Made by a program: the position numbers and the translations under genes. Under the pieces are notes generated by a model. The model had not been told where the DNA came from. It did no database searches and saw only the letters and a list, made by a program, of their open reading frames with translations. Below, piece by piece: positions 11,785 through 63,042 of a stretch of DNA of 64,000 bases (position 1 is its first letter; each line of letters starts with the position of its first letter). The stretch is from an uncultured Chloroflexia bacterium. GTDB lineage: Bacteria > Chloroflexota > Limnocylindria > QHBO01. The stretch lies in NCBI GenBank assembly GCA_963844415.1, contig CAWJOA010000005.1, positions 412,876-476,875 on the forward strand, in the 5' to 3' direction.

Positions 11785-12770
11785 TGGCCGAGCTCAACAT
11801 CCTCGAGGCGATCCGCTCGGCGATGGACGAGGAGATGGAGCGCGACGAGCGGGTCATGGTCCTGGGCGAGGACGTCGGCAAGAAGGGCGGCGTCTTCGGC
11901 GCCACCGAGGGGCTGTGGGCGAAGTACGGCGACAAGCGAGTGCTCGACACGCCGCTCACCGAGGGCATGATCGCCGGCGCCGCGATGGGCGCCGCGGTCT
12001 ACGGCCTGCGTCCGATCGCCGAGATGCAGTTCGCCGACTTCGTCTATCCCGGCTTCAACCAGATCGTGTCGGAGATCAGCCGGATCCACTACCGATCGAA
12101 CGGCACGTTCTCCGCACCGATGGTCATCCGCATGCCGTACGGCGGCGGCGTCCACGGCGCGCTGTACCACTCGCAGTCGAACGAGGCGTACTTCACCTCC
12201 ACGGTTGGGCTGAAGGTCGTCGCACCCGGCACGCCGGCCGACGCGAAGGGCCTGCTGAAGGCCGCCGTCCGCGACCCCGACCCGGTGATGTTCTTCGAGC
12301 ACAAGAAGACGTATCGGCTCTTCAAGGCCGAGGTTCCCGACGGCGACACGGTCGTGCCGATCGGCAAGGCGTCGGTGGCCCGCGAGGGCACGCACCTGTC
12401 GATCTTCTGCTACGGCTACATGCGCGTCTGCGCGCTCGAGGCGGCCGAGACCCTCGCGCGCGAGGACGGCGTCGAGGCGGAGGTCGTCGACCTGCGCACG
12501 CTCCGTCCGCTCGACCTCGAGACGGTGCTCGCGTCGGTCGCCAAGACGGGCAAGGCGCTCGTCGTCCACGAGGCGAACCGCTTCGGCGGATTCGGCGCCG
12601 AGATCGCCGCGGAGATCGGCGAGAAGGGCTTCGAGCACCTCGACGGCCCGGTCACCCGCCTCGCCGGACCCGACGTCCCCGGCGTGCCGTATCACCACAA
12701 TCTCGAGGACTGGTTCATGATCGGTCCCGACCGAATCGTCGCCGCTGCGCGTCAGCTGGCCTCCTACTGA
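11784..12770 (+). CDS. 2-oxoacid dehydrogenase E1 beta subunit
   Basis: ATG 11784 overlaps the E1alpha stop. MAELNILEAIRSAMDEEMERDERVMVLGEDVG...DTPLTEGMIAG, found inside track ORF 9870..12770. Confidence 0.9.
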   Translation: MAELNILEAIRSAMDEEMERDERVMVLGEDVGKKGGVFGATEGLWAKYGDKRVLDTPLTEGMIAGAAMGAAVYGLRPIAEMQFADFVYPGFNQIVSEISRIHYRSNGTFSAPMVIRMPYGGGVHGALYHSQSNEAYFTSTVGLKVVAPGTPADAKGLLKAAVRDPDPVMFFEHKKTYRLFKAEVPDGDTVVPIGKASVAREGTHLSIFCYGYMRVCALEAAETLAREDGVEAEVVDLRTLRPLDLETVLASVAKTGKALVVHEANRFGGFGAEIAAEIGEKGFEHLDGPVTRLAGPDVPGVPYHHNLEDWFMIGPDRIVAAARQLASY

Positions 12771-18131: not shown

Positions 18132-18677
18132 ATGAGGGTGTCGATCTTGGACGCGGACCATGAACTGGGCGCCGTCGGGACCGACCCCGTCCGGCTCGTG
18201 CCGTCGTCGTTTGCGCCGATGTACGAGGCACACCGCCTCAGTGTCTACCGGTACCTGCGTGCGAAGACCTCGAGCGACGACGAGGCGCTCGACCTGACAG
18301 CGGTGACCTTCGAGCGAGCCTTCGCCAACCACCGCCGCTTCCGGCGGCGCGACGGCGGGGTCCATGCCTGGCTCCTGCGGATCGCACGGAACGCCGCAAT
18401 CGACGCAAACCGTCGCCGCCGACCGACGATCGACCTCGCAGGAGCAGATGCCCATCTGGGCCGCCGCGCCGTCGAGGCGGACCGCCTGGCCCAACAGAAC
18501 GCCGAGGTGCTCGATCTCGTCGGGCGGCTTCCCGACGACCAGCGTGACGCCCTCCTCCTGCGGTATGCGGGCGGACTGACGGCCCGAGAGATCGGCATCG
18601 TCATGGGCAAGCGTGAATCAGCCGTTCAGAAGCAGATCGAGCGCGGGCTTGCCGCGCTCCGGGAGGCAATTCGATGA
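18132..18677 (+). CDS. ECF-type RNA polymerase sigma factor
   Basis: Track ORF 18081..18677. ATG 18132 follows GGAGG by 8 nt. Region 2: VYRYLRAKTSSDDEALDLTAVTFERAF. Region 4: LPDDQRDALLLRYAGGLTAREIG. Confidence 0.85.
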   Translation: MRVSILDADHELGAVGTDPVRLVPSSFAPMYEAHRLSVYRYLRAKTSSDDEALDLTAVTFERAFANHRRFRRRDGGVHAWLLRIARNAAIDANRRRRPTIDLAGADAHLGRRAVEADRLAQQNAEVLDLVGRLPDDQRDALLLRYAGGLTAREIGIVMGKRESAVQKQIERGLAALREAIR

Positions 18678-19798
18678 CCATGCATGACGACGTCGAGATC
18701 CGGCTTCGCCAGGCTCTCGAGGTGAGCCCTCCCGAGGAGGGCGGTCGGATGCTCGACGCTCGGGTCGCTCGCGCGATGAGCCAGCCGATCACAGCGCGAG
18801 GGTGGCGCTGGGGCGGCTCCTCCGCGCTCCTCAGAGCCGTCGCCCTCGCAGCGGCACTGGCCCTTCTGACCGGCACAGTGGCTGCCACACTGACCCTGCT
18901 CGACCGGATTGCCGGCGAGTCGACCCCGGGCGTCCAGGCGGCATGGCACAACGCCGAGCTATTGGCTATCGAGGAGACGCACGCCGGCGTGACGATCACC
19001 CTCGAACGCGCCTACGCGGACCTCAACCAGGTCGCGGTCTTCTTCACGGTCGAGGGACTCGACACGGTCACGTCTGACTCCGGAGAGACCGCGCCACTCG
19101 AGTGGACCGCCCAGCTTCGCGATCCAGCCGGCCGATCGGCGGAGGAGTGGGCCGTGGTCCGCAGCGGGACCGAGGCCAATGAGCTCGGCCTCTCGGCGAA
19201 CGTCCACACGTGGGAAGGCGCCGTCACACCGATGGCCGGCACGTGGGAGCTCACGTTCCCTTCGGTCGGCTACAACGGTGGCGGCTTCGTTGGCGGCGCG
19301 TGCGACGCGGAGTCGAACGATCCCGTGTGCGCCAGCTCGCCACCGAGCGCCATGGTCGAGGGCAGCTGGCAGTTCGAGTTCGCCCTGCCACCACCCGCGG
19401 GCTCGCTCGTGTCGACCGACCTGACGGCAACCGCAGATGACGCGATCGTGACGATCAGCGAGCTCCGCATCAGCCCCACGATGATCGCTGCGTCGATGGC
19501 CCTGCGGGTCGATGACGAGATCGTGACCTCCTGGGGAACGGCCAACAACACGCTCGTCTCGATCGAGGGACCCAGCGGCACCTATCCGGCCAACACCAGC
19601 TACCACGTGACGCAGGACCCGGATGACCAGGGACCGGACGGCGATCGGAACCTGTTCATGACCACCGAGGGATCTGACCAGGCCACCGGCTCCTGGACCA
19701 TCACCATCCCGCAGCTCTGGTACGCGACCGACGACGGTGGACCGGAGACGGGAACGACCGTGACCGAGCCGGTGACCTTCACGGTCGACGTGCCCTAG
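18674..19798 (+). CDS. Putative anti-sigma factor, single TM with large extracytoplasmic domain (DUF4179-like)
   Basis: Track ORF. ATGA overlap with the sigma gene. TM segment SALLRAVALAAALALLTGTVAATLTLL. Confidence 0.6.
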   Translation: MTMHDDVEIRLRQALEVSPPEEGGRMLDARVARAMSQPITARGWRWGGSSALLRAVALAAALALLTGTVAATLTLLDRIAGESTPGVQAAWHNAELLAIEETHAGVTITLERAYADLNQVAVFFTVEGLDTVTSDSGETAPLEWTAQLRDPAGRSAEEWAVVRSGTEANELGLSANVHTWEGAVTPMAGTWELTFPSVGYNGGGFVGGACDAESNDPVCASSPPSAMVEGSWQFEFALPPPAGSLVSTDLTATADDAIVTISELRISPTMIAASMALRVDDEIVTSWGTANNTLVSIEGPSGTYPANTSYHVTQDPDDQGPDGDRNLFMTTEGSDQATGSWTITIPQLWYATDDGGPETGTTVTEPVTFTVDVP

Positions 19799-49888: not shown

Positions 49889-50901
49889 TGGCGACCTACG
49901 TCCGAACCCAGGAGATCGCGCACGAGATCGGTGCGCGCGGGCGCTTCACGCTGCGGGTCACGAGCCCCGACGTCGAGCTGCGCGCCGGCGACGACACGAC
50001 GGCGATCGTCCGCGTCAAGATCGAGCTGCGCGCCGGCAGCGAGGAAGAGGCCGACGAGCTCTTCGAGCGCATGCGCTTCCATGTCCGCCAGGCCGATGGC
50101 GTGCTCGAGGTGGCCGAGCCGCGGCGCGATGACTCGGGCATCGGCAGCATCGTGCGCCTCCTCGGCATCGGCAGTGCCCGCCTTGACGACGCCTCGGTAG
50201 ACGCTGTGCTTCCCGCGGGCACCGAGATCGTGTTCGAGGGCGTCAGCACCGACCTCACCGCGTCGGGCTTCACCGGCTCGCAGCAGTACCGCACCGTTTC
50301 AGGCGACATGGTCCTCGACCGCGTCGCCGGCGACGTCAGGGTCCGCGACGTCTCGGGCGACGTGAGCATCCGCGCCGAGGAGCCGCTGCGCCTCGAGATG
50401 AATACGGTGAGCGGCGACATCTCTGCGGTCGCGCCACGGTTCGACCAACTCCGCCTCGTGACGGTGAGCGGCGACGTCGAGATCGAGGGCGACTTCGCCG
50501 AGGGCGGTCACCATCGCGTCGAGACGGTCAGCGGCGACCTGTCGCTCGGCGTCACCGATGGGCTAACCCTCGAGGTCCGCGGCCTGTCGACCGACACGCG
50601 CGTCTCCGTCCCGCACCGCTCGGAAGGCTCGCGCGACCGGCGGCGCTACGTGATCGGGGGCGGCGAGGGGCAGCTCCAGTTCAGCTCGATGTCCGGCGAC
50701 GCTTCGGTCCATCCCGGCCGGCGCCTGTCCGCGCCGATCCCACCGACCCATCCGACCGCGCCGACGCCACCCACACCACCGACCCCGGCGACGCCGGTCG
50801 ACACGGACGAACAGCTCGTGATCCTTCGCGCGCTCGAGGCCGGCGAGATCGGGGTCGACGAGGCCGCCGAGCGCCTCGCCGGCGGGACTACCGATGCCTG
50901 A
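49888..50901 (+). CDS. DUF4097-type (LiaG-like) beta-repeat protein
   Basis: Track ORF. Repeated VSGD(V/I/L)S motifs, a Pro/Thr linker and a C-terminal helical tail. Confidence 0.7.
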   Translation: MATYVRTQEIAHEIGARGRFTLRVTSPDVELRAGDDTTAIVRVKIELRAGSEEEADELFERMRFHVRQADGVLEVAEPRRDDSGIGSIVRLLGIGSARLDDASVDAVLPAGTEIVFEGVSTDLTASGFTGSQQYRTVSGDMVLDRVAGDVRVRDVSGDVSIRAEEPLRLEMNTVSGDISAVAPRFDQLRLVTVSGDVEIEGDFAEGGHHRVETVSGDLSLGVTDGLTLEVRGLSTDTRVSVPHRSEGSRDRRRYVIGGGEGQLQFSSMSGDASVHPGRRLSAPIPPTHPTAPTPPTPPTPATPVDTDEQLVILRALEAGEIGVDEAAERLAGGTTDA

Positions 50902-51337
50902 CGAGCTCGAGACGATCCTGCGCCTCGTGGCCGACGGCCGCCTCTCGCCGGAGGAGGCCGGGCCGATCATCGAGGCGCTGACGCGCGCCGAGCAGGCAGA
51001 GGGCCGCGCGGCCGAGCGCATGAGCCGCGGCGCGACGCGGCTGGATCGCGAGCTCACGCGCGCCCAGGGACGGATCGACCGGGCCCTCGAGCGGGCGCAG
51101 GTCCGTTTCGGCGCGCACGGCGGCCGTCAGCTTCGCATCCAGGTGAAGGAGCACGGGCGGCAGCACGTGAACCTGCGCATCCCGATCGGCTTCGTCGACG
51201 CCGCCCTCGGCTTCGTGCCCGGCCTGGCCGGCGACCAGGCCGATCGCATCCGCGAGGCGGTGAAGGCCGGCGAGATCGGACCGATCATCGACGTCGAGGA
51301 TCCGGACGGCGACGGCGTCCTCATCAGCGTGGAGTAA
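50894..51337 (+). CDS. Hypothetical protein with SHOCT-like N-terminal helix; third gene of the operon
   Basis: Track ORF. ELETILRLVADGRLSPEEAGPIIEAL. It overlaps the upstream gene by 8 nt. Confidence 0.55.
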   Translation: MPDELETILRLVADGRLSPEEAGPIIEALTRAEQAEGRAAERMSRGATRLDRELTRAQGRIDRALERAQVRFGAHGGRQLRIQVKEHGRQHVNLRIPIGFVDAALGFVPGLAGDQADRIREAVKAGEIGPIIDVEDPDGDGVLISVE

Positions 51338-51340
51338 CCG

Positions 51341-52639
51341 ATGGCAACCAGCGAGATCTCCCCCGCTGCGGCTGTCGCGACGACGGCGACGCCGGAAACG
51401 GGGCCGGCCCTCCTGCGGCCGCTGCGCATCCGCGACTTCCGGCTCCTCTTCGCCGGCGAGACGATCAGCGTGCTCGGCGACCAGTTCCACTTCGTGGCCC
51501 TCACCTGGCTCGCCCTCCAGCTGACCGGCTCGGGCCTCGTGCTCGGCACGGTGCTGATGACGGCCGCCATCCCGCGCGCGGCATTCATGCTGCTCGGCGG
51601 CGCGTTCAGCGACCGCTTCTCACCGCGCACGCTCATGCTGACCTCGAATGTCATCCGCGCCGTCGTGGTCGGCATCCTCGCGGCTCTCGTCCTCACCGGC
51701 CAGGCCGAGCTGTGGCAGCTGTACGTGCTCGCCGCGATCTTTGGCATCGTCGACGCGTTCTTCTACCCCGCCCTGAACACGATCGTCCCGATGCTCGTCC
51801 CCGAGCGGCAGCTGGCTCCCGCGAACGCGCTCGTCCAGAGCGCCCAGCAGGTGATGGGGCTGCTCGGGCCGGCGCTCGCCGGCGCGATGGTGGCGATCGT
51901 GCAGACCGGCCCGGCATTCGTCATCGACGCCGCGTCGTTCGCGGTCGCGGCGTTTGCGCTGCTCCTCATCCGGGGCGGGCGCCGTCAGGCATCGGTGCGC
52001 GACGCGCAGGGCGGCAACGTCCTGGCCGCCATCGGTGACGGCGTGCGGGCGGCATGGGCCGATCCGGCCGTACGCTCGATCGTGGTGCTCACCACGACCA
52101 TGAACTTCGCGATCGTCGGACCGATGAGCGTCGGGCTCGCGATCCTGGCCGACACGCGCTTCGACGGGGGCGCGGCCGCGTTCGGCCTCCTCTTCAGCGC
52201 CTTCGGCGCCGGCGCGGTCGTGGGCGCGATCGCCGCCGGGTCGATCCCCCGCCCGGCCCACCTCGGGGCGGTCACCCTCGCGATGACGACGCTGCTCGGC
52301 GTCGGGCTGGCCGGGATCGGCATCGCGCCGACGCTCGTCATCGCCCTCGCCATCCACGCGGCCATGGGCCTGCTCATCGGATTCGTGAACGTCCAGGCCA
52401 TCGCCTGGCTCCAGGCACGGATTCCCGATGAACGGCGCGGCAGGGTGATGAGCCTCGTGACGCTCGGGTCGGTCGGCCTGGCGCCGGTCTCGCTGGCGGT
52501 GGCCGGCGCGCTCGTCGAGCTCGGCGCCGTCACGCAGATCTTCCTCGCCGGCGGCGCGATCATCATCACGGCGTCGCTTGCCGGGTATGCCTGGGGCGTG
52601 CCGAAGCTCATGGTCTGGGCAGACGAGGACGCCGCTTAA
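51341..52639 (+). CDS. MFS transporter
   Basis: Track ORF, 12 TM segments. Motifs FRLLFAGETISVLGDQ and LGGAFSDRFSPR. Confidence 0.85.
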   Translation: MATSEISPAAAVATTATPETGPALLRPLRIRDFRLLFAGETISVLGDQFHFVALTWLALQLTGSGLVLGTVLMTAAIPRAAFMLLGGAFSDRFSPRTLMLTSNVIRAVVVGILAALVLTGQAELWQLYVLAAIFGIVDAFFYPALNTIVPMLVPERQLAPANALVQSAQQVMGLLGPALAGAMVAIVQTGPAFVIDAASFAVAAFALLLIRGGRRQASVRDAQGGNVLAAIGDGVRAAWADPAVRSIVVLTTTMNFAIVGPMSVGLAILADTRFDGGAAAFGLLFSAFGAGAVVGAIAAGSIPRPAHLGAVTLAMTTLLGVGLAGIGIAPTLVIALAIHAAMGLLIGFVNVQAIAWLQARIPDERRGRVMSLVTLGSVGLAPVSLAVAGALVELGAVTQIFLAGGAIIITASLAGYAWGVPKLMVWADEDAA

Positions 52640-52791
52640 GGTTCCGCCTGCGCCAGGCGCGCCCGGACCTCGTCCGCGAGCGGCAGGACCGAGCCGGCGA
52701 TCAGCAGCCACACGTACGACACCGCCACCGTCAGGATCGGTGCGATCAGGACGGTGGACGCGACGAGCACGAGCGCCGATCCGAGTGCCAC
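52636..52791 (-). CDS. Possible 51-aa two-TM peptide
   Basis: GTG 52791. ALGSALVLVASTVLIAPILTVAVSYVWLLIAGSVLPLADEVRARLAQAEP, GC3-rich. Below the track cut-off. Confidence 0.25.
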   Translation of the reverse strand: MALGSALVLVASTVLIAPILTVAVSYVWLLIAGSVLPLADEVRARLAQAEP

Positions 52792-52835
52792 CCCTCCGAC
52801 GCGGCGCGGCGCATGCGGTGCTAACGTTCGTCGCC

Positions 52836-54881
52836 GTGAGCCGCTCCCGCGACCCCGCCGACCAGGGCCGCGTCGACCCGCTCCTCGAGGTGCGTCAGAA
52901 ACGCCGCGGGCAGCGCCCCGGCGACGCGTATGTGCGCGTCGTGCGCCCCTACGAGGACACCTTCCGGAAGGGCGAGGACGAGGGCGAGCTCATCGCCACC
53001 GAGCGCACGGTCCTCGAGCGGCGTGGCTGGAAGTCCGGGCTCCGGCACGTGCGGACGTGGCTCATCGGCCGCCCGATCCACAGCGAGCGCGAGGAGCACG
53101 AGCGCCTGACCAAGGTCAAGGGCCTCGCGATCTTCTCGAGCGACAACATCAGCTCATCGGCCTACGGGCCCGAGGAGATCATGCACGTGCTGGTCCTCGC
53201 CGGCACGGGCGCGCTGGCGCTGACGCTGCCGCTGGCGGGCCTGATCATCGTGATGCTCGGGATCGTCACGGTGTCGTATCGGCAGACGATCAAGGCCTAC
53301 CCCACCGGTGCCAGCAGCTACATCGTGGCCAGCGACAACCTGGGATCGACGATGGGGGTCCTGGCGGCGGCCGCGCTGCTGATCGGGTACGTCGTCACGG
53401 TGTCGGTCTCCGTGTCGGCCGGCGTGGCGGCGATGACGTCGATCCTGCCGCAGATCTACGACGCCCGCGTCTGGATCAGCGTGGCACTGGTCGCGCTGCT
53501 CATGCTCGGCAACCTTCGTGGCATCCGCGAGTCGGGCACGATCTTCATGGTCCCGACGTACGCGTACATCGTCGTCATGCTCGGGATCATTGCCTTTGGG
53601 CTGTACCAGGTCACGTTCGGCGAGATCCCGCCGTTCGTGCCGCCAACCTCGTGGGCGTCCGTCGAGCAGGGCGGCCAGACGCTCGGCCTCTTCCTGATCT
53701 TGCGGGCCTTCAGCCAAGGTGCCGTGGCGCTCACCGGCGTGGAGGCCATCAGCGACGGCGTGCCGGCGTTCAAGCCGCCGGAGTGGAAGAACGCGCGGAC
53801 GACGCTGACGTGGGCGGCCATCGTCTTCGCGATCCTCTTCCTGGGGATCGCGTATCTGCTTACGACCCTCCGCATCGTCCCCGACCCGAACCACGAGCAG
53901 ACGGTCCTCAGCCTCCTGGTCCGCCACCTTGCGGGCGATGGGGTCGTGCTCGTCGTGGCGCAGGTGGCGACGGCGCTCATCCTCGTATTGGCGGCGAACA
54001 CGAGCTTCGCCGACTTCCCACGGCTGAGCTCGTTCCTCGCGCGCGACGGCTTCCTCCCGCGGCAATTCGCATTCCGCGGCGAGCGGCTCGCGTTCACGAC
54101 CGGGATCGTCGCGCTGTCACTGATGGCCATGGCGCTGATCATCGGCTTCGACGCCAGTGTCACCGGGCTGATCCCGCTCTATACCCTGGGCGTCTTCATC
54201 GCCTTCACGCTGTCGCAGGGCGGCATGCTCCAGCGCTGGTGGACCCGCCGCGAAGACGGCTGGCGGGCGGGTCTGGCAATCAACGGGCTCGGGACGCTCA
54301 CGACCGCGGTCGTTGCCGTCGTGGTCGGCACCAGCAACTTCTTCCAGGGCGCCTGGCTCGTGATCGTGCTCGTGCCGATTCTCATGCTGATCCTCGCAGG
54401 CATCAACCGCCACTACCGCGAGATGGATCGGGCACTCGCGCTCGACCACATCCCGCAGGCCGAGGAAGTGGCGCCGCGGCCGATCGTGATCGTGCCGATC
54501 GCTCGCCTCGACCGCCCGGCGCGGCAGGCGATCGCCTTCGCCAACTCGATCAGCTCCGAGGCGGTCGCGGTGCACGTCACGAACGACCCCGCGACGGCCG
54601 ACGAGCTGCGCGAGCGCTGGCCCGAGTGGGCGGGCTCGACCGAGCTGGTCGTCGTCGAGTCGCCGTATCGGGCGCTCATCGGTCCGCTGCTGGCGTACAT
54701 GGATGCGCTCCAGCGCCAGGCGCCGGACCGCCCGGTCCTCGTCGTGCTCAGCGAGTTCGTGCCGAAGCACTGGTGGGAGAACCTCCTCCACAACCAGACT
54801 GCGCTCCGACTGAAGCTGCGCCTCTTCACTCGCCGCAATACGATCGTCGCCGACGTGCCATTCCACCCGGACCGGGATTGA
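52836..54881 (+). CDS. APC superfamily permease with large cytoplasmic C-terminal domain
   Basis: Within track ORF 52578..54881; GTG 52836 chosen. Motifs LAIFSSDNISSSAYGPEE and VEAISDGVPAFKPPEWKNA, 12 TM segments. Confidence 0.8.
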   Translation: MSRSRDPADQGRVDPLLEVRQKRRGQRPGDAYVRVVRPYEDTFRKGEDEGELIATERTVLERRGWKSGLRHVRTWLIGRPIHSEREEHERLTKVKGLAIFSSDNISSSAYGPEEIMHVLVLAGTGALALTLPLAGLIIVMLGIVTVSYRQTIKAYPTGASSYIVASDNLGSTMGVLAAAALLIGYVVTVSVSVSAGVAAMTSILPQIYDARVWISVALVALLMLGNLRGIRESGTIFMVPTYAYIVVMLGIIAFGLYQVTFGEIPPFVPPTSWASVEQGGQTLGLFLILRAFSQGAVALTGVEAISDGVPAFKPPEWKNARTTLTWAAIVFAILFLGIAYLLTTLRIVPDPNHEQTVLSLLVRHLAGDGVVLVVAQVATALILVLAANTSFADFPRLSSFLARDGFLPRQFAFRGERLAFTTGIVALSLMAMALIIGFDASVTGLIPLYTLGVFIAFTLSQGGMLQRWWTRREDGWRAGLAINGLGTLTTAVVAVVVGTSNFFQGAWLVIVLVPILMLILAGINRHYREMDRALALDHIPQAEEVAPRPIVIVPIARLDRPARQAIAFANSISSEAVAVHVTNDPATADELRERWPEWAGSTELVVVESPYRALIGPLLAYMDALQRQAPDRPVLVVLSEFVPKHWWENLLHNQTALRLKLRLFTRRNTIVADVPFHPDRD

Positions 54882-54903
54882 GGCGCCGGCTGGGCACGAA
54901 TCT

Positions 54904-55149
54904 GCCGCTCAGCGACTGTGGGCCCGGCGCGCGGGCAAACTGGCCCGTGCCCGATAACGGCCGCCCAGCGACTGTAGGCGCGACCGATGGACCAGGGTCA
55001 GCCGCTCAGCGGCTGATATCGCGACCGAGAGGTGTGGTGACGTTCGAAACAGCCGGCGCGTGCTCGATCTCCGCCGCCCACCGACTGGAATCTGGGCTGG
55101 CGCGACCCTGAGCGGGCATTCGTTCGCGAAAGAGTCGCTCAGCGACTAC
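54904..55149. repeat. Cluster of five short palindromic (REP-like) repeats between convergent genes
   Basis: GCCGC(T/C)CA(G/C)CG(A/G)CTG begins at 54904, 54960, 55001 and 55073, with a variant at 55135. Perfect palindromes: CAGCCGCTcAGCGGCTG (54999-55015) and GTCGCTcAGCGAC (55135-55147). Confidence 0.55.
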
Positions 55150-55174
55150 GAAGAGACACGCGCCGATGCGCTCT

Positions 55175-55621
55175 TCATGGCATCTCGAGGCGGAAGTATC
55201 GGCCCTGGCTGAGGATGTGGCGGCGAGCAGCCCGATAGATCAGGTTGCCCGGGAACGGCTGCTGCTCGGCGGTTGCCAGGATGACGGCCGTGCGTTCAGG
55301 TCCGTCATCCAGCGCGATCGCAGTGACCTCGAACGTCTCCTCTGAGCGCGGTGCGATGCTCGCCTGACCGGCCTCGCGCAGGTTCGCCGTCCATCCGACC
55401 TCGCCGTTCGGATGGCCGACGTACCAGTTGCCGTCGACCCGGAGCAGGCCCACCAGCACGCTTCGCGGGCGGCCGGTCCGACGGCCGCGCACGGTCAGCT
55501 TCGCGGTGATCCCGATGCCGACGCTGAACCACGCCCAGCGGATGAGCGGGTCGAGCAGCCGAAGGACCGCGTACTCGATGCGGAGGGCGACGGTCCAGGC
55601 AGCCGATCGGCGCGGGGTCAT
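55175..55621 (-). CDS. Deazaflavin-dependent nitroreductase-family (Ddn-like) oxidoreductase
   Basis: Track ORF. LTVRGRRTGRPRSVLVGLLRVDGNWYVGHPNGEVGWTANLREAG fits the split beta-barrel Ddn pattern. Confidence 0.55.
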   Translation of the reverse strand: MTPRRSAAWTVALRIEYAVLRLLDPLIRWAWFSVGIGITAKLTVRGRRTGRPRSVLVGLLRVDGNWYVGHPNGEVGWTANLREAGQASIAPRSEETFEVTAIALDDGPERTAVILATAEQQPFPGNLIYRAARRHILSQGRYFRLEMP

Positions 55622-55658
55622 CGGTCAATGATGGCGCGCCAGTGCGACACTTCCGCGG

Positions 55659-57404
55659 ATGCGCGCTGCACCGCCGACGACGTCCTCGCGTCAATTGACA
55701 CGATTCGTCCCGATCCTCGAGTGGTCGAGAAGCTACGACCGCCGATGGCTCCGCGGCGACCTCATCGCCGGTGTCGCTGTCGCGGCGATGATCGTGCCCA
55801 AGAACCTCGGCTACGCGGGCATCGCAGGGATCCCCGTCGAGAACGGGCTGTATGCGGCAGCGGCGGCAGCGATCATCTACAGCCTCTTCTGCACATCTCG
55901 ACACATCTCGACCGGCCCGAGCTCGTCGCTCGCGGCCGTCGCCGGCGGCGCGGTCATCTTGACGGGCCTCAGTGGCAACGAGGCGGCACAGATGGTCGCG
56001 GCCATCGCCGTCGTGACCGGCGCGCTGTTCCTCCTGGTCGCCGTCCTCAGGCTCGGCTGGCTGGCGAGCTTCCTCTCGCTGGCGGTCGTGACCGGATTCC
56101 TCGCCGGCGCCGCGATCGACGTCGTCATCGGCGAGCTGCCAAAGCTCACCGGAACATCCGCCGACGGCGTGAATGCGTGGCAGGAGCTCGCGTCGTGGTT
56201 CCGTGGGCTGGGCGACCTCAGCCTGGCGACGTTGCTGGTCGGCCTGGTTGCCCTTGCGGTCATCCTCGGGCTTCGATTTGCGTATCCGAGGATGCCGGGT
56301 GCGCTCGTGCTCGTGGTCGGCGGCCTGATCGGCTCGGTCGTCCTCGACCTCGGAGCGCAGGGAGTCGCGCTGGTGGGCCCCGTCCCACGCGGGCTGCCGC
56401 TTCCGCAGCTGCCATCGCTCGAGGTCGTGTCGCAGAACCTCCCGACGATCGTCATCTCGTCATTCGCGCTCCTGCTCATCGGGTTCTCCCAGACTGCGGG
56501 TGATGCCCAGGCATTCGCGACGAAGCATCGGTATCGCATCGACCTCAACCAGGAGTCGGTGGCACAGGGAATGGCAAACGTCGGCGCCGGCGTCTTCCAG
56601 GGAATGCCCGTGTCCACCAGCCTCTCGGCGAGCTCGCTGAACGAGTCCGCAGGGGCGAGGACGCCGGTCGCCTCGCTCGCAACCGGAGGGATCGTCGTCG
56701 CGACGCTGATCCTCCTCGCGCCGCTCTTCTCCGAGCTGCCCAAGGCGGTCCTGGGCGCGATCATCATCGACGCGGTCGTCTTCGGGATGATCAACCTCGC
56801 GGAGTTCGGACGGCTTCGGCGGGTGAAGCCGTTCGATTTCTGGATCGCGATCGCCGCAGTCATCGGCGTGCTGTCGGTGGGGGTGCTGCTCGGCGTCGTC
56901 GTCGGCATCGCGCTGTCCCTGCTGTGGCTCATCAACGTCGCGACCCGACCGTCCATGCCGATCCTGGGGCGTGAGCCCGGCACGCACGTGTACCGCGATC
57001 TCGACGAGCACCCGGACGGCGAGACCTATCCGGGGGTGGCGGTGATCCGGATCGATGGTGGCGTGTTCTTCGCGACGGCTGCGGCCCTGGACGAGCGCGT
57101 GCGCGCGATCCTCGGGAGCCAGCCCGACCTGCACTCACTCGTGCTGGACCTCGAGGGCGTGAACTTCGTCGACTCGCAAGGCGCAGCGAAGCTGAGCGAC
57201 CTCCATGAGCTGACCGAGACGAACGCGATCGAGCTGCGCCTCGCCCGGGTGAAGCCCGACGTGTCAAGGGTGCTGGCGGCCGATGGGCTCATCGACCGGA
57301 TCGGGCGCGAGCGGATCCACGGCAACGTCCACCGGGCGGTCGAGGCGGCGAAGAGAGCAGATGCTCGAAGACAGGAGGAGGCAGCAACGCCGCCCACACC
57401 GTAG
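55659..57404 (+). CDS. SulP family anion permease with C-terminal STAS domain
   Basis: Track ORF. Motifs RGDLIAGVAVAAMIVPKNLGYAGIAG and LVLDLEGVNFVDSQGAAKL. Confidence 0.9.
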   Translation: MRAAPPTTSSRQLTRFVPILEWSRSYDRRWLRGDLIAGVAVAAMIVPKNLGYAGIAGIPVENGLYAAAAAAIIYSLFCTSRHISTGPSSSLAAVAGGAVILTGLSGNEAAQMVAAIAVVTGALFLLVAVLRLGWLASFLSLAVVTGFLAGAAIDVVIGELPKLTGTSADGVNAWQELASWFRGLGDLSLATLLVGLVALAVILGLRFAYPRMPGALVLVVGGLIGSVVLDLGAQGVALVGPVPRGLPLPQLPSLEVVSQNLPTIVISSFALLLIGFSQTAGDAQAFATKHRYRIDLNQESVAQGMANVGAGVFQGMPVSTSLSASSLNESAGARTPVASLATGGIVVATLILLAPLFSELPKAVLGAIIIDAVVFGMINLAEFGRLRRVKPFDFWIAIAAVIGVLSVGVLLGVVVGIALSLLWLINVATRPSMPILGREPGTHVYRDLDEHPDGETYPGVAVIRIDGGVFFATAAALDERVRAILGSQPDLHSLVLDLEGVNFVDSQGAAKLSDLHELTETNAIELRLARVKPDVSRVLAADGLIDRIGRERIHGNVHRAVEAAKRADARRQEEAATPPTP

Positions 57405-57413
57405 CCGCAGTGC

Positions 57414-57490
57414 TGGCGCGCCCGGAGGGATTCGAACCCCCGACCTGCTGATCCGAAGTCAGCTGCTCTGATCCACTGAGCTACGGGCGC
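57414..57490 (-). tRNA. tRNA-Arg (anticodon TCG), CCA encoded
   Basis: GCGCCCG ta GCTC agtggatca GAGC a GCTGA ctTCGga TCAGC aggtc GGGGG ttcgaat CCCTC CGGGCGC g cca. All four stems pair. Confidence 0.9.
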
Positions 57491-57590
57491 ACTATTCACG
57501 CTCAAACTGAGCGGAAAACTCGTTCTGCATTGTGCCACAGCGCTCAGTGCAGGCCACGGGGTCATGAGGGGGCGCTAGACCAGATTGGTG

Positions 57591-58697
57591 CTAGGCACCT
57601 GGTCCTTCTACCCGAGCACGCTGCGCCTGTAGGGCTGCTTCGCGCTCATGGTGGCGAGTGATTTCGTGGGGGTCCGCGCCCGAGTGCTCGCATGGGTTGA
57701 CGTGGATGATCGCCATGTCAAGCCGGGATATCTCGTGAAGCAGACGGTGACGTACCTCCTCCGAAACCCGGTGGCCATCCGCGACAGTGAGATCGCGATC
57801 GACGGTGATCGCGAGCGTTGCCTCGAGACCATGGCCGAGCCACCGCACGCGGAGACGCTCCACGTCCTGGACCTCCGGCACCGACGCCGCAACCGCCTCC
57901 ACCTGCTGAACGATCTCCGGCTCGACGGCGTCCATGAGCCGGGCGACAACATGGCCCGCGGCCTGGCGCAGGACAAACAGAATGACGACCGTGATGAGCA
58001 GCCCGACGAGTGGGTCGGCAAGCGGGTAGCCCGCCGCGACGCCGATGGCTCCAGCAACGACTGCCAGCGATGTAAGCCCGTCGGTCCGGGCGTGGTGGCC
58101 ATCCGCCACGAGGGCGGCCGACCCGATCGAGCGTCCCACCCGTATCCGGTACAGGGCGACCGCCTCATTGCCCACGAACCCGATCACACCCGCGACCATG
58201 ACGATCGGAAGATTCGCGACCGGCTGCGGATCGATGAGGCGATGAATCGATTCGTATGCGGCGAGGCCCGCTGACGCGGCGATCATGAGCAGGATGAACA
58301 GGCCCGCCAGGTCCTCCGCACGCCGATAGCCGAAGGTGTAGCGTCTGGTGGCCGCCCGGCTGCCGAGGGCGAACGCGATCCACAAGGGTACCGAGGTCAA
58401 CGCATCGCTGAAGTTGTGGACCGTGTCCGCGAAGAGGGCCACCGACCCCGAAATCAGGACTACCCCGAGTTGGGCGAGGGCGGTGACTCCGAGGACCGCC
58501 AGCGACACCTTGACTGCCCGGATGCCGCGAGCGTCGGAGGTCAGCGCATCGTCGACCGAGTCGGACGGGTCGTGGGAATGCCCAAGGATGCCCGCAAGGA
58601 AGCCACGCACGCCAGCATGGCGGCGGATGTGGTCGGCGTTATGAGCGTGGCCGTGGCCGTGCTCGTCAGGGACAGCGTCGCGCAGCTCATCGGACAC
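57591..58697 (-). CDS. Cation diffusion facilitator (CzcD/ZitB-like) with His-rich N-terminus
   Basis: Track ORF. Motifs DEHGHGHAHNADH, ALFADTVHNFSDALTS, HHARTDGLTSL. TACACT-N6-GTG precedes the start. Confidence 0.9.
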   Translation of the reverse strand: MSDELRDAVPDEHGHGHAHNADHIRRHAGVRGFLAGILGHSHDPSDSVDDALTSDARGIRAVKVSLAVLGVTALAQLGVVLISGSVALFADTVHNFSDALTSVPLWIAFALGSRAATRRYTFGYRRAEDLAGLFILLMIAASAGLAAYESIHRLIDPQPVANLPIVMVAGVIGFVGNEAVALYRIRVGRSIGSAALVADGHHARTDGLTSLAVVAGAIGVAAGYPLADPLVGLLITVVILFVLRQAAGHVVARLMDAVEPEIVQQVEAVAASVPEVQDVERLRVRWLGHGLEATLAITVDRDLTVADGHRVSEEVRHRLLHEISRLDMAIIHVNPCEHSGADPHEITRHHEREAALQAQRARVEGPGA

Positions 58698-58822
58698 GGA
58701 GCAAGTGTAGGCCGCCTGTGTGCCGCTTCCTCATTTCGAATCTGGCGCGTCGGATCGGTACGGTGCGGTTGAGGCTTGCCCAACCGCCAATGCGAACGGC
58801 GCGACGTGGTCCTGTGCGGAAC

Positions 58823-60039
58823 CTATCGAAGAAGGACGATACCCAGGGCGCCGGCTCCCAAGATGACGACCGGAACCGCCGCGCCTGCCCGCCAGAGGTA
58901 GAGGGCCGCAAGCGCCAATCCGAAGATCAGCACCGTTAGCAGGCTCGTCAGAGCGGCCATCCCGAGTTGCAGGGTGGTGGCGGCAACCAGGCCAATGACT
59001 GCGGCCGTAATGCCATCGAGGATGGCGTGTAGGCGGTGGTTGTTGACCATCCGCTCCAAGAGGCCGTGCCCGAGCAAGGTGATAGCAAAGGCAGGCACGA
59101 ACATCCCGACAGTGATTGCCGTTGCGCCGACGATGCCGCCGCCGACGAAGCCGACGAACGTCGCGAAGATGACCAGTGGCGCCGGGATGATGCCTGCGAG
59201 GGCCAGGCCATCGAGAAACTGATCGTCGCCCATCCAGCCATCCGACCCGACCGCATCGTTCCGGACGAAGGGGATCGAGGTATAGGCGCCGCCGAACGTC
59301 AGTGCCCCGCCCTTGAGGCCGGTGACGAATAGCTGGCCGGGAGTCACCTCCGCGCCTGAACTGGCAGGCAGTTCTGCTCGGTTGGAAAAGCCGAGGTCGG
59401 CAACGATCACGAACACGATCGCCACGGCTAGAAGCACCAGCGGAACACCAGCCACTCGCGAGTGGCCGCGCTCATCCAGCAGGAAGACGAGCCCACCGAC
59501 CGTGAGCGGAATCACAAAGGGCAGGCCCGCCAAGCCAGCCCCGGCCGCCAACCCCGCCACCACAAATGAGACTGGGCTCCCCAGAACTCGCTCGCCGATG
59601 CGGTGGAAGCCGCGCAGGACAAGAGCGACCACCGCGGCTTGGCAACCGGCGAAGGCCGCCGCGACGATCGGGGACTCGAGACCCGCCTCGACGTAGAGCC
59701 ACGACAACGTCAGCATCAGCATGAAGCCCGGCAGCATGAAGCCGAGCCCGGCGAGCAGTCCGCCGATGCGTCCACGGGCGACCATGCCGAAGAAACCGCC
59801 AGCTCCTGCGCCTCTGGACCGGGGAGTACTTGGTAGACCGCCAACGTGCGGTTGAATCTCGCTGACGAGATCCACTCTTGCTGGTCGACCAAACCGGTCC
59901 GGAGCATGCCGATCTGCGCGACCGGACCACCCCAAGCCAGTATCCCGAACCGCAGAAAGCGCACAAATAACGAGGCAAGCGACTGATGGGGTGGACCTGC
60001 TTCGTTCTGCCCGCGGTCGGCATGGGGGGCGATGCTCAC
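58823..60039 (-). CDS. chrA: Chromate transporter family protein, frame broken once
   Basis: The N-terminus is track ORF 59716..60039 (FLRFGILAWGGPVAQIGMLR...VLPGPEAQELA). The rest is ORF 58823..59935 (FFGMVARGRIGGLLAGLGFMLPGF...). The break is near 59785-59800. TAACCT-N7-GTG precedes the start. Confidence 0.8.
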
Positions 60040-60201
60040 GCCGCCTAGGTTACGGTGAGCGTCTGGCTTGGCTCCCGCCTAACCGGGAACCGTCAGGCCG
60101 TTGCGGATGCGGGCCGCCTAGCAAAGCCAGAAGAGAGCAGATAACTCGACACGTTTCGCTCCCCCATCCACGCTTGGGCTACAGCGCATCGGCCGGGATA
60201 G

Positions 60202-60304
60202 TCCGAAGTCAGCTGCTCTGATCCACTGAGCTACGGGCGCCGATTCACGCTCAAACAGAGCGGATAACTCGTCCCTGCATTGTGCCACAGCGCTTACTCA
60301 GTGC
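60202..60304 (-). repeat. Truncated tRNA-Arg (positions 1-38 only) plus upstream flank; direct repeat of 57452-57550
   Basis: 39 of 39 nt are identical to the tRNA 5' half, up to the 3' edge of the anticodon loop. The following ~60 nt match roughly 90%, with a 4-nt indel. Confidence 0.8.
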
Positions 60305-60361
60305 CTGAGCGTGCGGAGAGAGGCGGCAGAGCTGCCGCGATCGGGTCTGCCCTCCGAAGCT

Positions 60362-60385
60362 TCACACTAACCACTGTTAGTGTGA
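60362..60385. promoter_or_regulatory. Perfect 10-bp inverted repeat (hairpin or operator)
   Basis: TCACACTAAC-cact-GTTAGTGTGA. Confidence 0.4.
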
Positions 60386-60525
60386 TCACGCTTTAGGGCA
60401 TCCTGGATCGGTCTACTGGCGGGACGCGGCGCGGGTGCAGCGAAAATACCTGGCGGCTTCCGCTCGAGGGCAGCCTCACGCCACGGGTCTCCTGTGCTCG
60501 GGAGCCGAGGAGTTAGAGTTAGAGA

Positions 60526-60574
60526 AGAGCCGCCGGGTCAACTGTGTTCCCCCCACAGTGTGTCCGGCGGCTCT
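60526..60574 (-). terminator. Long imperfect hairpin downstream of the tetR-ABC operon
   Basis: AGAGCCGCCGG gtca ACTGTG ttcccc CACAGT gtgt CCGGCGGCTCT. On the minus strand it is followed by CTCTTCTCTAACTCT. Confidence 0.4.
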
Positions 60575-60604
60575 GGTGTACCGATTGCACCGAGCGTGCC
60601 ATCC

Positions 60605-60638
60605 GAAATCGCCGCTATCCCAACGCACCGGTCTCCCC
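60605..60638 (+). repeat. Dispersed repeat, left-half copy E
   Basis: gaaatcgccgctatcccaacgcaccggtctcccc, 16 nt beyond the stop of the ABC-2 permease gene. Confidence 0.55.
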
Positions 60639-60653
60639 ACAAGGCGCGCCCGG

Positions 60654-61443
60654 TCATTCGGACTGATCCGCACGCTCCCACCAGGCGACGGTCCCCGCCA
60701 GGCCGATGCCCGCGGCCACCAGGACGACGACCACGCCGCCGATCGTGACCGGCTCGACCTCCGAGCCGCCTGCTCCAGCAAGGATGGCCGGTACCGACCA
60801 CGGGAACCAGGCGCCCCAGCCCAGCACCGCCAGGATCTGGGCCAGCGCAACGGTGAGCACGGCGAACGCCCAATGGCGCGATGTAGCCGCGTCCGATGCC
60901 GGCGACGAGGGCGGTGCCGGTCTGGAGCGCGACGGTGAGGGCGGCGGCGAGGCCGATCGAGCCCAGCGCGCGGAGCGCGTCGTCGAACGACCAGCCGGGC
61001 AAGCCGACGACCGCGCCGATGGCCATGCCGACGGCCAGGACCCATGCGGAGATGGCGATGCCCCAGCCGGCGACGACGATCGCCTTCGCCAGCACGACCG
61101 CCCGGCGAGACGTCGGGATCGCCAGCAGGTCGCGAATCGTGCGGTCGGCGAACTCGCGACCGAAGATCCAGGCCGTGAGGAAGGCGAACAGGACCGCGCC
61201 GCCGATGGCGACCGCCTGCCCGAGCATGTTGAGAAACGTCGGCCAATCGGCGGTGCCGGCCGTGAGTGCTGCCTTGGTGCCGATCAGGCCGAGTGAGCGC
61301 GCCGCTTCAGGGTCCTTGAGGATCACCATGAACAGGCCACTCACGAGCGGCGCCAGGGTGAACGCGATGGCTACCAGCCATGGGACCCGTGAGCGCCGCG
61401 CCTTCAGCAGCTCGACGCCGAGAGCGGTGGGCAGCTGCGTCAT
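60654..61443 (-). CDS. ABC-2 type transporter permease, frame broken once
   Basis: The N-terminal ~190 aa are in track ORF 60538..61443. The C-terminus AVLTVALAQILAVLGWGAWFPWSVPAIL...WWERADQSE is in ORF 60654..60860. The break is near 60865-60875. Confidence 0.7.
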
Positions 61444-62384
61444 GCCGCAACCCTCGCATCGACCGCGCTGGTGAGACGGACGAAGTGCTCCTCGAGCGAC
61501 TCGCGCGCGATCGCGAGGTGCAGTGGCGGCACTCCGGCTGCGACCAGCAGGCTGGCGATCTCATCCGGGGCGTCGAGCGCGCGCGGATCGCGCAGCTCGA
61601 GCCGCACATTGCCCGTTGGGCCGGCGTGCGTTGGCGACAGGCCCGCGTTGCGTAGCGCGCGCTCCGCGGCGTCCAGGTCACGTGCCGCGATCTCGAGCCG
61701 CCGGTCGGCCTGCTCCTCGAGCGCCTCCGCGTCGAGCTCCTCGACCAGCCGCCCGCGATGGACGATCCCGATGCGGGTCGCCAGCCGCTCGACCTCGGCC
61801 AGGATGTGGCTCGACATGAAGACCGTCGCACCACGTTCCCTGGCCAGACGACGGATGAGCTCGCGGATCTCGATGACGCCCGCCGGGTCGAGGCCGTTGG
61901 CCGGCTCGTCAAGGAGGAGCAGCTCCGGCTCGGCAATGAGCGCCCGTCCCAGCGCCAAGCGCTGGAGGTTTCCGAGCGAGAGGGTGGCGGCCCGCCGCCG
62001 GTCGTAGGGCTCGAGCGCGAGCTCGTTGATCATGGCGTCGACCCTTCCCCGATCGGCGACGCCTGCCAGCCGCCGGGCGACTTCGAGGTTCTCGCGCACG
62101 GTCAGCTCGGGGTAGGCGGTCGCGCTCTCCACCAGGTGGCCGACGCGGCGCCACAGGTGAGTCGCGTCGGCGCGCACCGGCTCGCCCAACAGCTCAGCGT
62201 GACCGGCCGTCGGGCGAATCATGCCGAGCAGCATGCGGATGGTGGTCGACTTGCCCGCGCCGTTCAGGCCCAGGAAGGCGTAGATCTCGCCCCGCGCCAC
62301 CCGCAGGTCGAGCTGATCGACCGCGAGGACGCCGCCCCGATAGACCTTCGTCAAGCCGTTGGTTGCAACGGCCAGCTCAGACAT
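61440..62384 (-). CDS. ABC transporter ATP-binding protein
   Basis: ATG 62384 inside track ORF 61440..62453. Motifs GLNGAGKSTT, LSLGNLQRL, LLLDEPANGLD. Confidence 0.9.
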   Translation of the reverse strand: MSELAVATNGLTKVYRGGVLAVDQLDLRVARGEIYAFLGLNGAGKSTTIRMLLGMIRPTAGHAELLGEPVRADATHLWRRVGHLVESATAYPELTVRENLEVARRLAGVADRGRVDAMINELALEPYDRRRAATLSLGNLQRLALGRALIAEPELLLLDEPANGLDPAGVIEIRELIRRLARERGATVFMSSHILAEVERLATRIGIVHRGRLVEELDAEALEEQADRRLEIAARDLDAAERALRNAGLSPTHAGPTGNVRLELRDPRALDAPDEIASLLVAAGVPPLHLAIARESLEEHFVRLTSAVDARVAA

Positions 62385-63042
62385 GGGGCAGCTGCCCGTC
62401 GTAGCCCAGGCCGCGCAGCACAAAGGCGTTGAGCTCTCTGGTGACGGCGGCAACCTCGGTGGGGTCGCTCACCACATCGTGGAGCGAGGAGAAGCACGCG
62501 AAGACATAGGCGGCGGCGCGTACCGGATCGATGGCTCGAAACATCCCGGAATCGACGCCCTCGGCGACGATCGCCGAGACGAGGGGGGCCAGTGCGCGGA
62601 ATGTGTGTTCCGAGATCCGGTCATGAATCGCTCGGTTCTCCGGGCGATGGAAGATCTCGATGAGGTCGCGTTCGTACGAATTGCCGCCAACTTGCCCGAT
62701 CGCGGCCGCAAAGGCCAACAACCGCTCGACCGGTGACTGGTCCGGCTTCGACGCCGTCCCCTGAATCCGGTCCGCGACCTCGAGCACCATCGCTTCCGCG
62801 ACCGCCGTTACGACCGCGTCTTTCGTCGCGAAATAGAGGTAGAACGTGCCCTTCGCAACCCCGGCCGCACGGACGATGTCATCAACCGACGCCGCGGCCA
62901 CCCCTTGCTGCATGAAGACCGATGCGGCCGACTTGACGAGCTGCTCGCGCCGAGCCTCCTTACGCTTGGCTCGCTGCGTGGTGGCGATCGGCCTGGCGTC
63001 TTCCTCTCCGGTCGCTCTTCGCATTGGCATTCGCCTTTCCAT
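62377..63042 (-). CDS. TetR family transcriptional regulator
   Basis: Track ORF. The HTH is ASVDDIVRAAGVAKGTFYLYFATKD. An alternative start at ATG 63030 follows GGAAAGG. Confidence 0.85.
   Translation of the reverse strand: MERRMPMRRATGEEDARPIATTQRAKRKEARREQLVKSAASVFMQQGVAAASVDDIVRAAGVAKGTFYLYFATKDAVVTAVAEAMVLEVADRIQGTASKPDQSPVERLLAFAAAIGQVGGNSYERDLIEIFHRPENRAIHDRISEHTFRALAPLVSAIVAEGVDSGMFRAIDPVRAAAYVFACFSSLHDVVSDPTEVAAVTRELNAFVLRGLGYDGQLPHV

Follow-up and report, generated by a model that had tools for sequence, protein, structure and literature searches.

A recurrent tRNA-half module brackets small recombinase-less cassettes in soil Chloroflexota and may mark an anticodon-loop recombination site served in trans

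What carried the 5′ half of a tRNA gene to a point 2.7 kb upstream of the intact gene, and how did two unrelated transport genes come to lie between them? This question is raised by a tRNA-Arg(TCG) locus in a 64,000-nt stretch of DNA (hereafter the window; positions 412,876 to 476,875 of contig CAWJOA010000005.1, assembly GCA_963844415.1) from an uncultured Chloroflexia bacterium. Our analysis leads us to the view that the 2.6-kb segment between the two tRNA copies, which carries the genes for a chromate transporter (ChrA) and a cation diffusion facilitator (CDF), is probably a trans-mobilised cassette, inserted with 'reversed' polarity at a recombination site in the anticodon loop of tRNA-Arg(UCG). 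The evidence lies in the anatomy of the locus and in a conserved junction module that recurs, with different cargo, in related genomes.

The window contains a single tRNA gene, the intact tRNA-Arg(TCG) that an earlier note, written from the sequence alone, had placed at 57414-57490 on the minus strand; ARAGORN and Rfam agree on it. A repeat search likewise bore out the note's displaced copy at 60202-60240, which is identical at 39 of 39 positions, covers nt 1-39 of the tRNA and breaks off at the anticodon loop's 3′ edge, its final base being the last base of the 7-nt loop CTTCGGA as read from the sequence. With the half tRNA upstream of the 5′ end of the intact gene and both on the minus strand, the arrangement is the correct 5′-fragment configuration by the criteria of Islander, and the repeat-to-repeat distance of 2.75 kb falls inside the 2-200 kb length range used there. 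Upstream of each copy lies a related flank. The repeat search aligned the two flanks at 93% (57494-57523 against 60243-60272) and 100% identity (57525-57544 against 60275-60294), and a separate comparison gave 93.6% over 94 nt. The note had described this repeat as ~60 nt long, ~90% identical and interrupted by a 4-nt indel; the flank and its identity stood up over 55 nt, whereas the indel (GTAA) lies just outside, where it adds ~12 nt of weak match, and the flank itself contains two 1-nt indels.

On the other side of the displaced half, directly after the break, runs a conserved arm of 72 nt. The earlier note had taken sequence at about 60125-60190 for a third, weaker copy of the flank. The similarity is present, but it belongs to this arm, which shares two motifs with the flank and is not a copy of it. 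The motifs common to both, GCGCTGTRGCnCAA and CGAGTTATCYGCTCT (the latter called box2), flank the half tRNA on both sides, repeated in direct orientation, and the placement of box2 resembles that of arm-type sites. An nhmmer profile of the arm matches solely beside half tRNAs. Arm, distal half and distal flank (60130-60294) together make up one complete module of ~165 nt, in which we propose that the arm is the P′ arm and marks the end of the cassette.

This module is not peculiar to the window. A protein query with SulP, the sulfate permease that adjoins the intact tRNA, returned 45 loci (numbered here with the prefix L), nearly all from soil metagenome-assembled genomes (MAGs) labelled 'uncultured Chloroflexia'. 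A metagenome scan with a pattern derived from the arm yielded 8 true matches, each of which (8/8) had flank, 5′ half and arm, and further modules were found on contigs reached through CDF, GNAT and ABC-permease protein queries. Altogether, 14 contigs of soil Chloroflexota yielded 19 full modules, besides 2 solo box units. In 19/19 modules the displaced 5′ half ends at the same base and passes, from the first base beyond the loop, into the same ~72-nt arm. By contrast, the cargo is unrelated from one module to the next and includes CDF/ChrA, an AI-2E transporter, a PEMT-DsbA-pirin-ABC exporter group, GNAT, PNPOx/DoxX, copper ATPase (Cu-ATPase)/YHS and extracytoplasmic function (ECF) sigma/Kelch genes, among others. 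Box2 follows the module closely: it occurs 36 times in the 1.06 Mb of the window and related loci, and 35 of these 36 occurrences lie within modules. The 5′ halves hardly vary, most copies being identical at 39/39 positions, and the arms differ by 5-15%; such invariance fits selection to rebuild a working tRNA.

The closest relatives carry different cargo at the module. In L030, the nearest of them (SulP 94%), the tRNA is followed 2.3 kb upstream by a 5′ half with its flank. Window and L030 are collinear over 50002-57545, the collinearity stops exactly at the edge of the flank, and homology is found again only over 60133-60294; the cargo between the repeats of L030 comprises an AI-2E transporter gene and one unknown gene. 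In L062, which is 94.7% identical to the window over the bestrophin/TetR/ABC block, the module sits at the same place, and the cassette that follows the shared module is a different one (7.1 kb, with ECF sigma factors, a Kelch protein and a Tricorn-like protein, and no ChrA-CDF). The CDF gene in turn recurs at 87% DNA identity in the arrays of L058 and L059, there without ChrA and beside a Cu-ATPase/YHS cassette. Several modules may follow one another. L022 has two further 5′-half copies, its cargo consisting of PEMT, DsbA, a luciferase-like oxidoreductase, pirin, LUD and an ABC exporter, then GNAT and an unknown gene. L060 is an array of three cassettes (6.7, 2.4 and 1.5 kb), L053 holds three modules within 4 kb that delimit cassettes of 1.3 and 0.86 kb, and L062 has two modules 7.1 kb apart, so that cassettes range from 0.9 to 7 kb over the arrays.

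A related module is found at a second tRNA gene, oriented the opposite way. In other relatives SulP is linked to tRNA-Gly(CCC), which is represented by numerous 3′ fragments (nt 31-76) as well as by two 5′ halves (nt 1-40). The arm profile finds the sequence beside the tRNA-Gly(CCC) 3′ fragments too (E = 7e-5 to 4e-3); these hits begin right at the break and run on the opposite strand. The tRNA-Arg and tRNA-Gly arms can be aligned over ~60 nt, the box2/TGAG motif lies on the other side as well, and the tRNA-Gly 5′ half of L020 (18554-18593) has a homologous arm in the 'reversed' layout. So the alignments point to a single module family, of the form box2, half tRNA, 14 nt, box1...box2, which would be built on the tRNA-Arg 5′ half in sense, on the tRNA-Gly 3′ part in antisense and on the tRNA-Gly 5′ half. 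One family on different halves and in either orientation is as expected of an integrase family that switches targets, and 'reversed polarity' would then be expected to mean no more than that the site is turned round with respect to the gene, on a quasi-symmetric anticodon stem-loop. The tRNA-Gly(CCC) hotspots were seen at L017 18768-19899, at L044 17566-18640, 5979-6024 and 7993-8070, and at L006, L015 and L037; they include arrays of 3′ fragments, some 1 kb apart, each fragment preceded by a conserved arm of ~80 nt, homologous to the tRNA-Arg arm in reverse complement.

The tRNA-Arg gene itself also has fragments of the classical kind. L036 carries a 3′ fragment of tRNA-Arg(TCG), nt 32-77, which overlaps the 5′ block (nt 1-39) only in ACTTCGGA, essentially the anticodon loop. 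Fragments of this tRNA lie at L036 13830-13875 and 16781-16819, and a 21-nt 3′ end lies at L022 11776-11796. The classical 3′ fragments of L036 and L022 lack module arms, and no integrase is in view; other element families therefore use the same tRNA. The flank variants of the window and L062, compared to place the crossover, gave close values (85% against 89% identity, counted from the sequences).

The earlier note had offered two origins for the locus, and the comparative data favour the first of them: a crossover in the anticodon loop with an element that supplied its own 5′ half and upstream flank. In the mechanism that we envisage, the incoming DNA would carry an attP-like site composed of the flank with its two motifs, tRNA nt 1-39 and the 72-nt arm with the same motifs, the motifs in flank and arm being of a protein-binding type. 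A recombinase encoded outside the cassettes would act on this site in trans, with the crossover in the loop. After the crossover, the 5′ half and flank of the cassette would be joined to the resident 3′ half to give the working tRNA at 57414-57490, whose expression the new flank would presumably drive. The tRNA 3′ half (57414-57451) would thus be the fixed chromosomal side, and the 5′ half (57452-57490) would have arrived with the cassette. The earlier 5′ half and flank would be displaced to the far end, against the arm of the cassette (60130-60294). Repeated events would produce arrays in which every internal junction regenerates the full ~165-nt module.

The junctions seen among the relatives can be sorted along these lines. 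Flank, 5′ half and arm together would be an attP-like junction between tandem cassettes, as in most modules. A native, promoter-like flank (TACAAT/TACGAT) with 5′ half and arm (modules c1 and c3 of L060, and L049) would be the displaced chromosomal end. Flank and intact tRNA, found in the window, L030 and L024, would be the proximal junction, and native flank with intact tRNA, the state of most other relatives, would be the unoccupied site.

No enzyme for such a reaction came to light. Six frames of the 1.06 Mb (window and ~60 loci) yielded nothing plausible in a search for tyrosine and serine recombinase motifs, and neither Pfam searches on ~70 genes around the tRNAs nor the precomputed Pfam lists of L060 and L062 included a recombinase; the same genes and lists contain no integration or transfer genes in the cassettes. 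No integrase-bearing element at the same att site lies within ±10 kb of the ~60 loci, intI was not found next to the array (its neighbours are permeases, an ABC operon and TetR), and the module was not found in collections of phages, plasmids and viral contigs. When 1480 open reading frames (ORFs) were clustered for a recurrent linked family, only SulP and paralogues of the adenylate-cyclase/AAA/TPR type emerged. The latter, large proteins with adenylate/guanylate-cyclase, AAA_16 and TPR domains, occur at about three per locus around the tRNA hotspots (159 ORFs in 46 loci). The earlier note's remark that no integrase remains is correct in that none is present, but its picture of a loss is probably wrong, as no module has a recombinase nearby. 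Rather, because ~19 modules in 14 contigs lack one and some cassettes measure just 0.9-1.3 kb, the cassettes look non-autonomous from the start.

Several observations sit uneasily with a trans-acting recombinase at the loop. The failure of all three recombinase searches is one of them, and neither a circular form nor an empty site was observed. A scan of the flank for sigma-70 and sigma-54 promoters gave no consensus match. The solo box1-box2 units (L058 1814-1853 and L059 5986-6025) have no tRNA half, the left part of the flank being fused to the right end of the arm, and they look like deletions between box2 repeats. Recombination at box2 thus also occurs, which leaves the crossover point within the identity block unproven. 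The c1 and c3 modules of L060 and that of L049 have a different, promoter-like flank that lacks the motifs; the left arm is therefore not obligatory. Lastly, the model does not predict the box2-like motif that lies downstream of the intact tRNA. This motif is found only in the window and in L030 (11689-11712), in both of which SulP directly abuts the tRNA, and its occurrence is significant against shuffled sequences (p < 0.001).

The alternative that fares best takes the modules for relics of old integrations, now kept and shuffled by homologous recombination and gene conversion with no dedicated recombinase today, the conserved tRNA half and arms serving as homology anchors for swapping the DNA in between. 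This we consider unlikely, yet worth weighing seriously. It would explain why no array has a recombinase near it, the solo units of L058 and L059, which resemble deletions between the 20-nt box2 direct repeats, the mosaic duplication of module flanks in L053, and a hybrid tRNA-Gly/tRNA-Arg 3′ fragment in L020 whose joint lies in the shared T-loop. However, arms of 55-72 nt without a function should decay, and they are 85-95% conserved between assemblies of which the other non-coding DNA cannot be aligned. Nor does homologous recombination explain why the same arm adjoins different tRNA halves in opposite orientation and why the break always falls at the loop.

A second alternative, that the ~165-nt module is an expressed unit (a mobile promoter with a leader, or a tRNA-derived small RNA) regulating the genes downstream, strikes us as improbable. 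The flank does sit upstream of a working tRNA in the window, L030 and L024, where it presumably promotes transcription, and the first gene past the module is co-oriented with it in ~12/17 cases (a tally from ORF and gene lists); this bias is weak (p about 0.07). Against an expressed unit, the module gave no fold signal either as RNA (z = +0.85) or as single-stranded DNA (z = +0.60), 14 modules contained 0 compensatory pairs, Rfam had no match on the window besides the tRNA, and neither a consensus promoter nor a terminator was seen. With no fold signal and no covariation, a double-stranded protein-binding site is favoured. An expressed unit would also leave the flipped version beside the tRNA-Gly 3′ fragments unexplained. 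As a side effect it is compatible with the trans-mobilised cassette: the displaced tRNA promoter would read into the cassette, and it may do so into the newest one.

Three narrower candidates were rejected. A structured RNA or attC-like hairpin conflicts with the positive fold z-scores, the absence of covariation and the direct orientation of the box motifs. A split tRNA or tRNA intron does not fit, as there is no 3′ half or T-arm past the arm and an intact gene stands alongside. A sigma-54 site at TGGCAC in box1 lacks, by eye, the correctly spaced GC.

The second origin offered by the earlier note, a segmental or tandem duplication of tRNA and flank followed by loss of the 3′ half of the second copy, is rejected, with very little probability left to it. 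A more distant relative, L010, would provide its starting point, with two complete and identical tRNA-Arg(TCG) genes 1.36 kb apart (18342-18418 and 19700-19776, bracketing a TetR gene and a 157-aa gene). These tRNAs, however, are a different sequence variant and are without the module motifs. In the modules, nothing past nt 39 resembles the tRNA 3′ half or the DNA downstream, and an identical break is followed by an identical 72-nt arm in all 19 copies, with unrelated cargo. The note had also considered that relatives might carry a second complete tRNA at ~60.2 kb; the closest ones (L030, L060 and L062) have a half tRNA with the same arm there and no complete second tRNA. An artefact of long-read MAG assembly, an idea that the note had raised and that the frameshifts in the ChrA and ABC-2 permease genes might encourage as signs of an error-prone assembly, is hardly credible, since at least 14 contigs, which come from independent samples and pipelines (ENA MAGs, JGI metagenomes and ENA assemblies), show the same module in the same layout and the two flank copies differ at several positions.

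How would the trans-mobilised cassette relate to known systems? Its polarity is the mirror image of canonical tRNA islands, as the earlier note had said, though this is not new in itself. Zhao and Williams (2002, J Bacteriol 184:859) reportedly described the first element with a displaced 5′ tRNA fragment. In 5′-fragment islands, as in the present locus and the mechanism envisaged for it, the intact tRNA has a direct repeat of its 5′ part lying upstream, the anticodon loop is the centre of the crossover, and the 5′ part of the gene, together with the sequence upstream of it, has to come from the element. In Islander, 159 of 3919 islands have a 5′ tDNA fragment and 3760 a 3′ fragment (PMC4383910), and Krupovic et al. 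call recombination with the 5′ part of a tRNA 'considerably less frequent', citing Zhao and Williams 2002 (PMC6563490). A tyrosine integrase of its own is part of the definition of such an island, whereas none was found with CDF/ChrA or in the window and ~60 loci, and here a conserved junction module of ~165 nt is reused in arrays of very small cassettes.

Closer in taxonomy are the ssrA islands of Dehalococcoides (PMC3146451), of which 15/31 have no integration module and have been suggested to be cis-mobilizable, while 16 have a serine integrase (DsiB) beside attL. They resemble the present case in belonging to Chloroflexota, in forming tandem arrays at a tRNA-like gene and in having direct repeats with an adjoining conserved motif. 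Their target is, by contrast, the 3′ end and T-loop of transfer-messenger RNA (tmRNA), with a 20-bp repeat and classical polarity, where the present modules have a 39-nt 5′ half with arms; in addition, no island in view here has a recombinase, and the cassettes here are of smaller size. Tandem accretion and cis-mobilizable elements (CIMEs) are known from the ICESt1 family (Pavlovic 2004, as cited in PMC3146451) and from ICEberg 2.0 (PMC6323972). Like the cassettes here, CIMEs lack integration and transfer genes and stand in tandem at one site; they are flanked by att sites and moved by a recombinase encoded elsewhere, as is proposed for the cassettes. CIMEs are recognised through a related integrase-bearing integrative and conjugative element at the same site, and no such master element was met within ±10 kb of the ~60 loci.

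Integron cassette arrays and clusters of attC sites lacking integron-integrases (CALINs) consist of short cassettes without a recombinase of their own, the enzyme being encoded elsewhere. The dif modules of Acinetobacter (PMC6449649, PMC13141974) are likewise a cassette system that relies on such an enzyme. Common to these and to the present arrays are a repeated recombination site between cassettes, putative in the present case, and adaptive cargo (metal resistance, transport, regulators). Unlike attC, the module has no imperfect-hairpin fold, its box repeats are direct and not inverted, and neither intI nor attI accompanies it; it is built around a tRNA half, would rebuild a tRNA gene and is not a 28-bp Xer site. 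It is conceivable, though on present evidence rather doubtful, that the arrays belong to an integron-like, tRNA-based platform for gene capture in soil Chloroflexota, in which an unlinked recombinase would insert and excise short cassettes, themselves without a recombinase, at the anticodon loops of tRNA-Arg(UCG) and tRNA-Gly(CCC). The same module family would then serve in either orientation, covering both classical and 'reversed' polarity. In the literature searched we did not find the combination of a ~165-nt tRNA-half module, arrays of small recombinase-less cassettes and use of two tRNAs in either polarity. Should the modules be active sites, abundant uncultured soil bacteria would exchange adaptive genes one at a time (metal efflux pumps, transporters and regulators, for instance), with no integrase for each piece. 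One family of recombination sites would target a tRNA gene from either side, and the rare 'reversed' tRNA islands would be a consequence of the symmetry of the anticodon stem-loop and not an oddity. Island finders that require an integrase inside the island would miss all of these cassettes.

Table 1. Features at and around the tRNA-Arg(TCG) locus, in window coordinates.
Feature	Position	Strand	Evidence or remark
SulP/STAS sulfate permease	55659..57404	+	Pfam; abuts tRNA 3′ end, fixed left border here
Box2-like motif TCGAGCATCTGCTCTCTTC	57347..57366	-	45 nt downstream of intact tRNA, within variable SulP C-terminal tail
tRNA-Arg(TCG), intact, 77 nt, CCA encoded	57414..57490	-	ARAGORN; Rfam tRNA 71.6 bits
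Proximal E-flank, 55 nt upstream of intact tRNA	57491..57545	-	box1 GCGCTGTGGCACAA, box2 CGAGTTTTCCGCTCA at 57508-57522
Cargo gene 1, His-rich CDF	57591..58697	-	Pfam PF01545 Cation_efflux and PF16916 ZT_dimer
Cargo gene 2, ChrA	58823..60039	-	Pfam PF02417
Conserved 72-nt arm ('cons65') directly after break	60130..60201	-	nhmmer E = 5.5e-22
Arm motifs: box1 GCGCTGTAGCCCAA, GAGCGTGG, GGGGGAGCG, box2 CGAGTTATCTGCTCT	60134-60148 (box2)	-	
Displaced copy of tRNA-Arg nt 1-39, 39/39 identical	60202..60240	-	repeat search
Distal E-flank, 54 nt, ~90% identical to 57491-57545	60241..60294	-	box2 at 60257-60271
Non-coding spacer, ~360 nt, module to ABC-2 permease stop	60295..60653	.	two palindromes (60526-60574, ~60356-60380)
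TetR / ABC ATPase / ABC-2 permease operon, upstream of module	60654..63042	-	Pfam

Within the window, Pfam confirms that the CDF and ChrA genes are the only ones between the repeats, as had been claimed, with the qualification that ChrA is frameshifted: a 1-nt shift in an A/T run near 59790-59796 puts its N-terminal 85 residues in another frame of the translations, and the gene may be a pseudogene or the shift a homopolymer error of long reads. The G+C content drops from ~0.70 to 0.62-0.66 over 57.4-60.6 kb, and at third codon positions (GC3) the cargo, at 0.75-0.79, is lower than most neighbouring genes.

On the left, the border is formed by SulP. Its homologues (82-94% identity) lie in non-syntenic contexts across the 45 loci, so SulP is itself cargo-like, and in other relatives it forms a single-gene islet next to a tRNA. 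One such islet, in L020, lies between an intact tRNA-Gly and the hybrid 3′ fragment mentioned above (10005-10050 and 12092-12167); the fragment is antisense, is fused to the SulP N-terminus and consists of tRNA-Gly nt 31-62 and a tRNA-Arg-like 3′ end.

On the right, the TetR-ABC operon is either the next cassette or the chromosomal border. The distal module has a motif-bearing, non-native flank, for which reason the block may be a further cassette, and the edge of the array is past the end of the window. In L062, the 95%-identical relative, just ~45 nt separate module and operon at this position; the longer spacer of the window may have arisen as a small insertion or be what is left of a lost cassette. 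Next to the module, about 21 nt of it match the sequence that precedes the module in L058. The ABC-2 permease ORF (60476-61443) encodes 301 aa, where homologues have 262 aa and align to only 64% of it; by comparison with L062 the true stop lies near 60654, and this gene, too, is probably frameshifted in the assembly.

Two further stretches of the window drew our attention. At 52578-55111 two long ORFs overlap in different frames, and only that at 52578-54881, an amino-acid permease, has a Pfam match; the other, of 785 aa (52754-55111), is a shadow frame of high G+C. The region at ~36.9-42.7 kb is gene-poor, contains only short ORFs with a GC3 of 0.76-0.82 against 0.9 around it, and may be another foreign or degraded segment.

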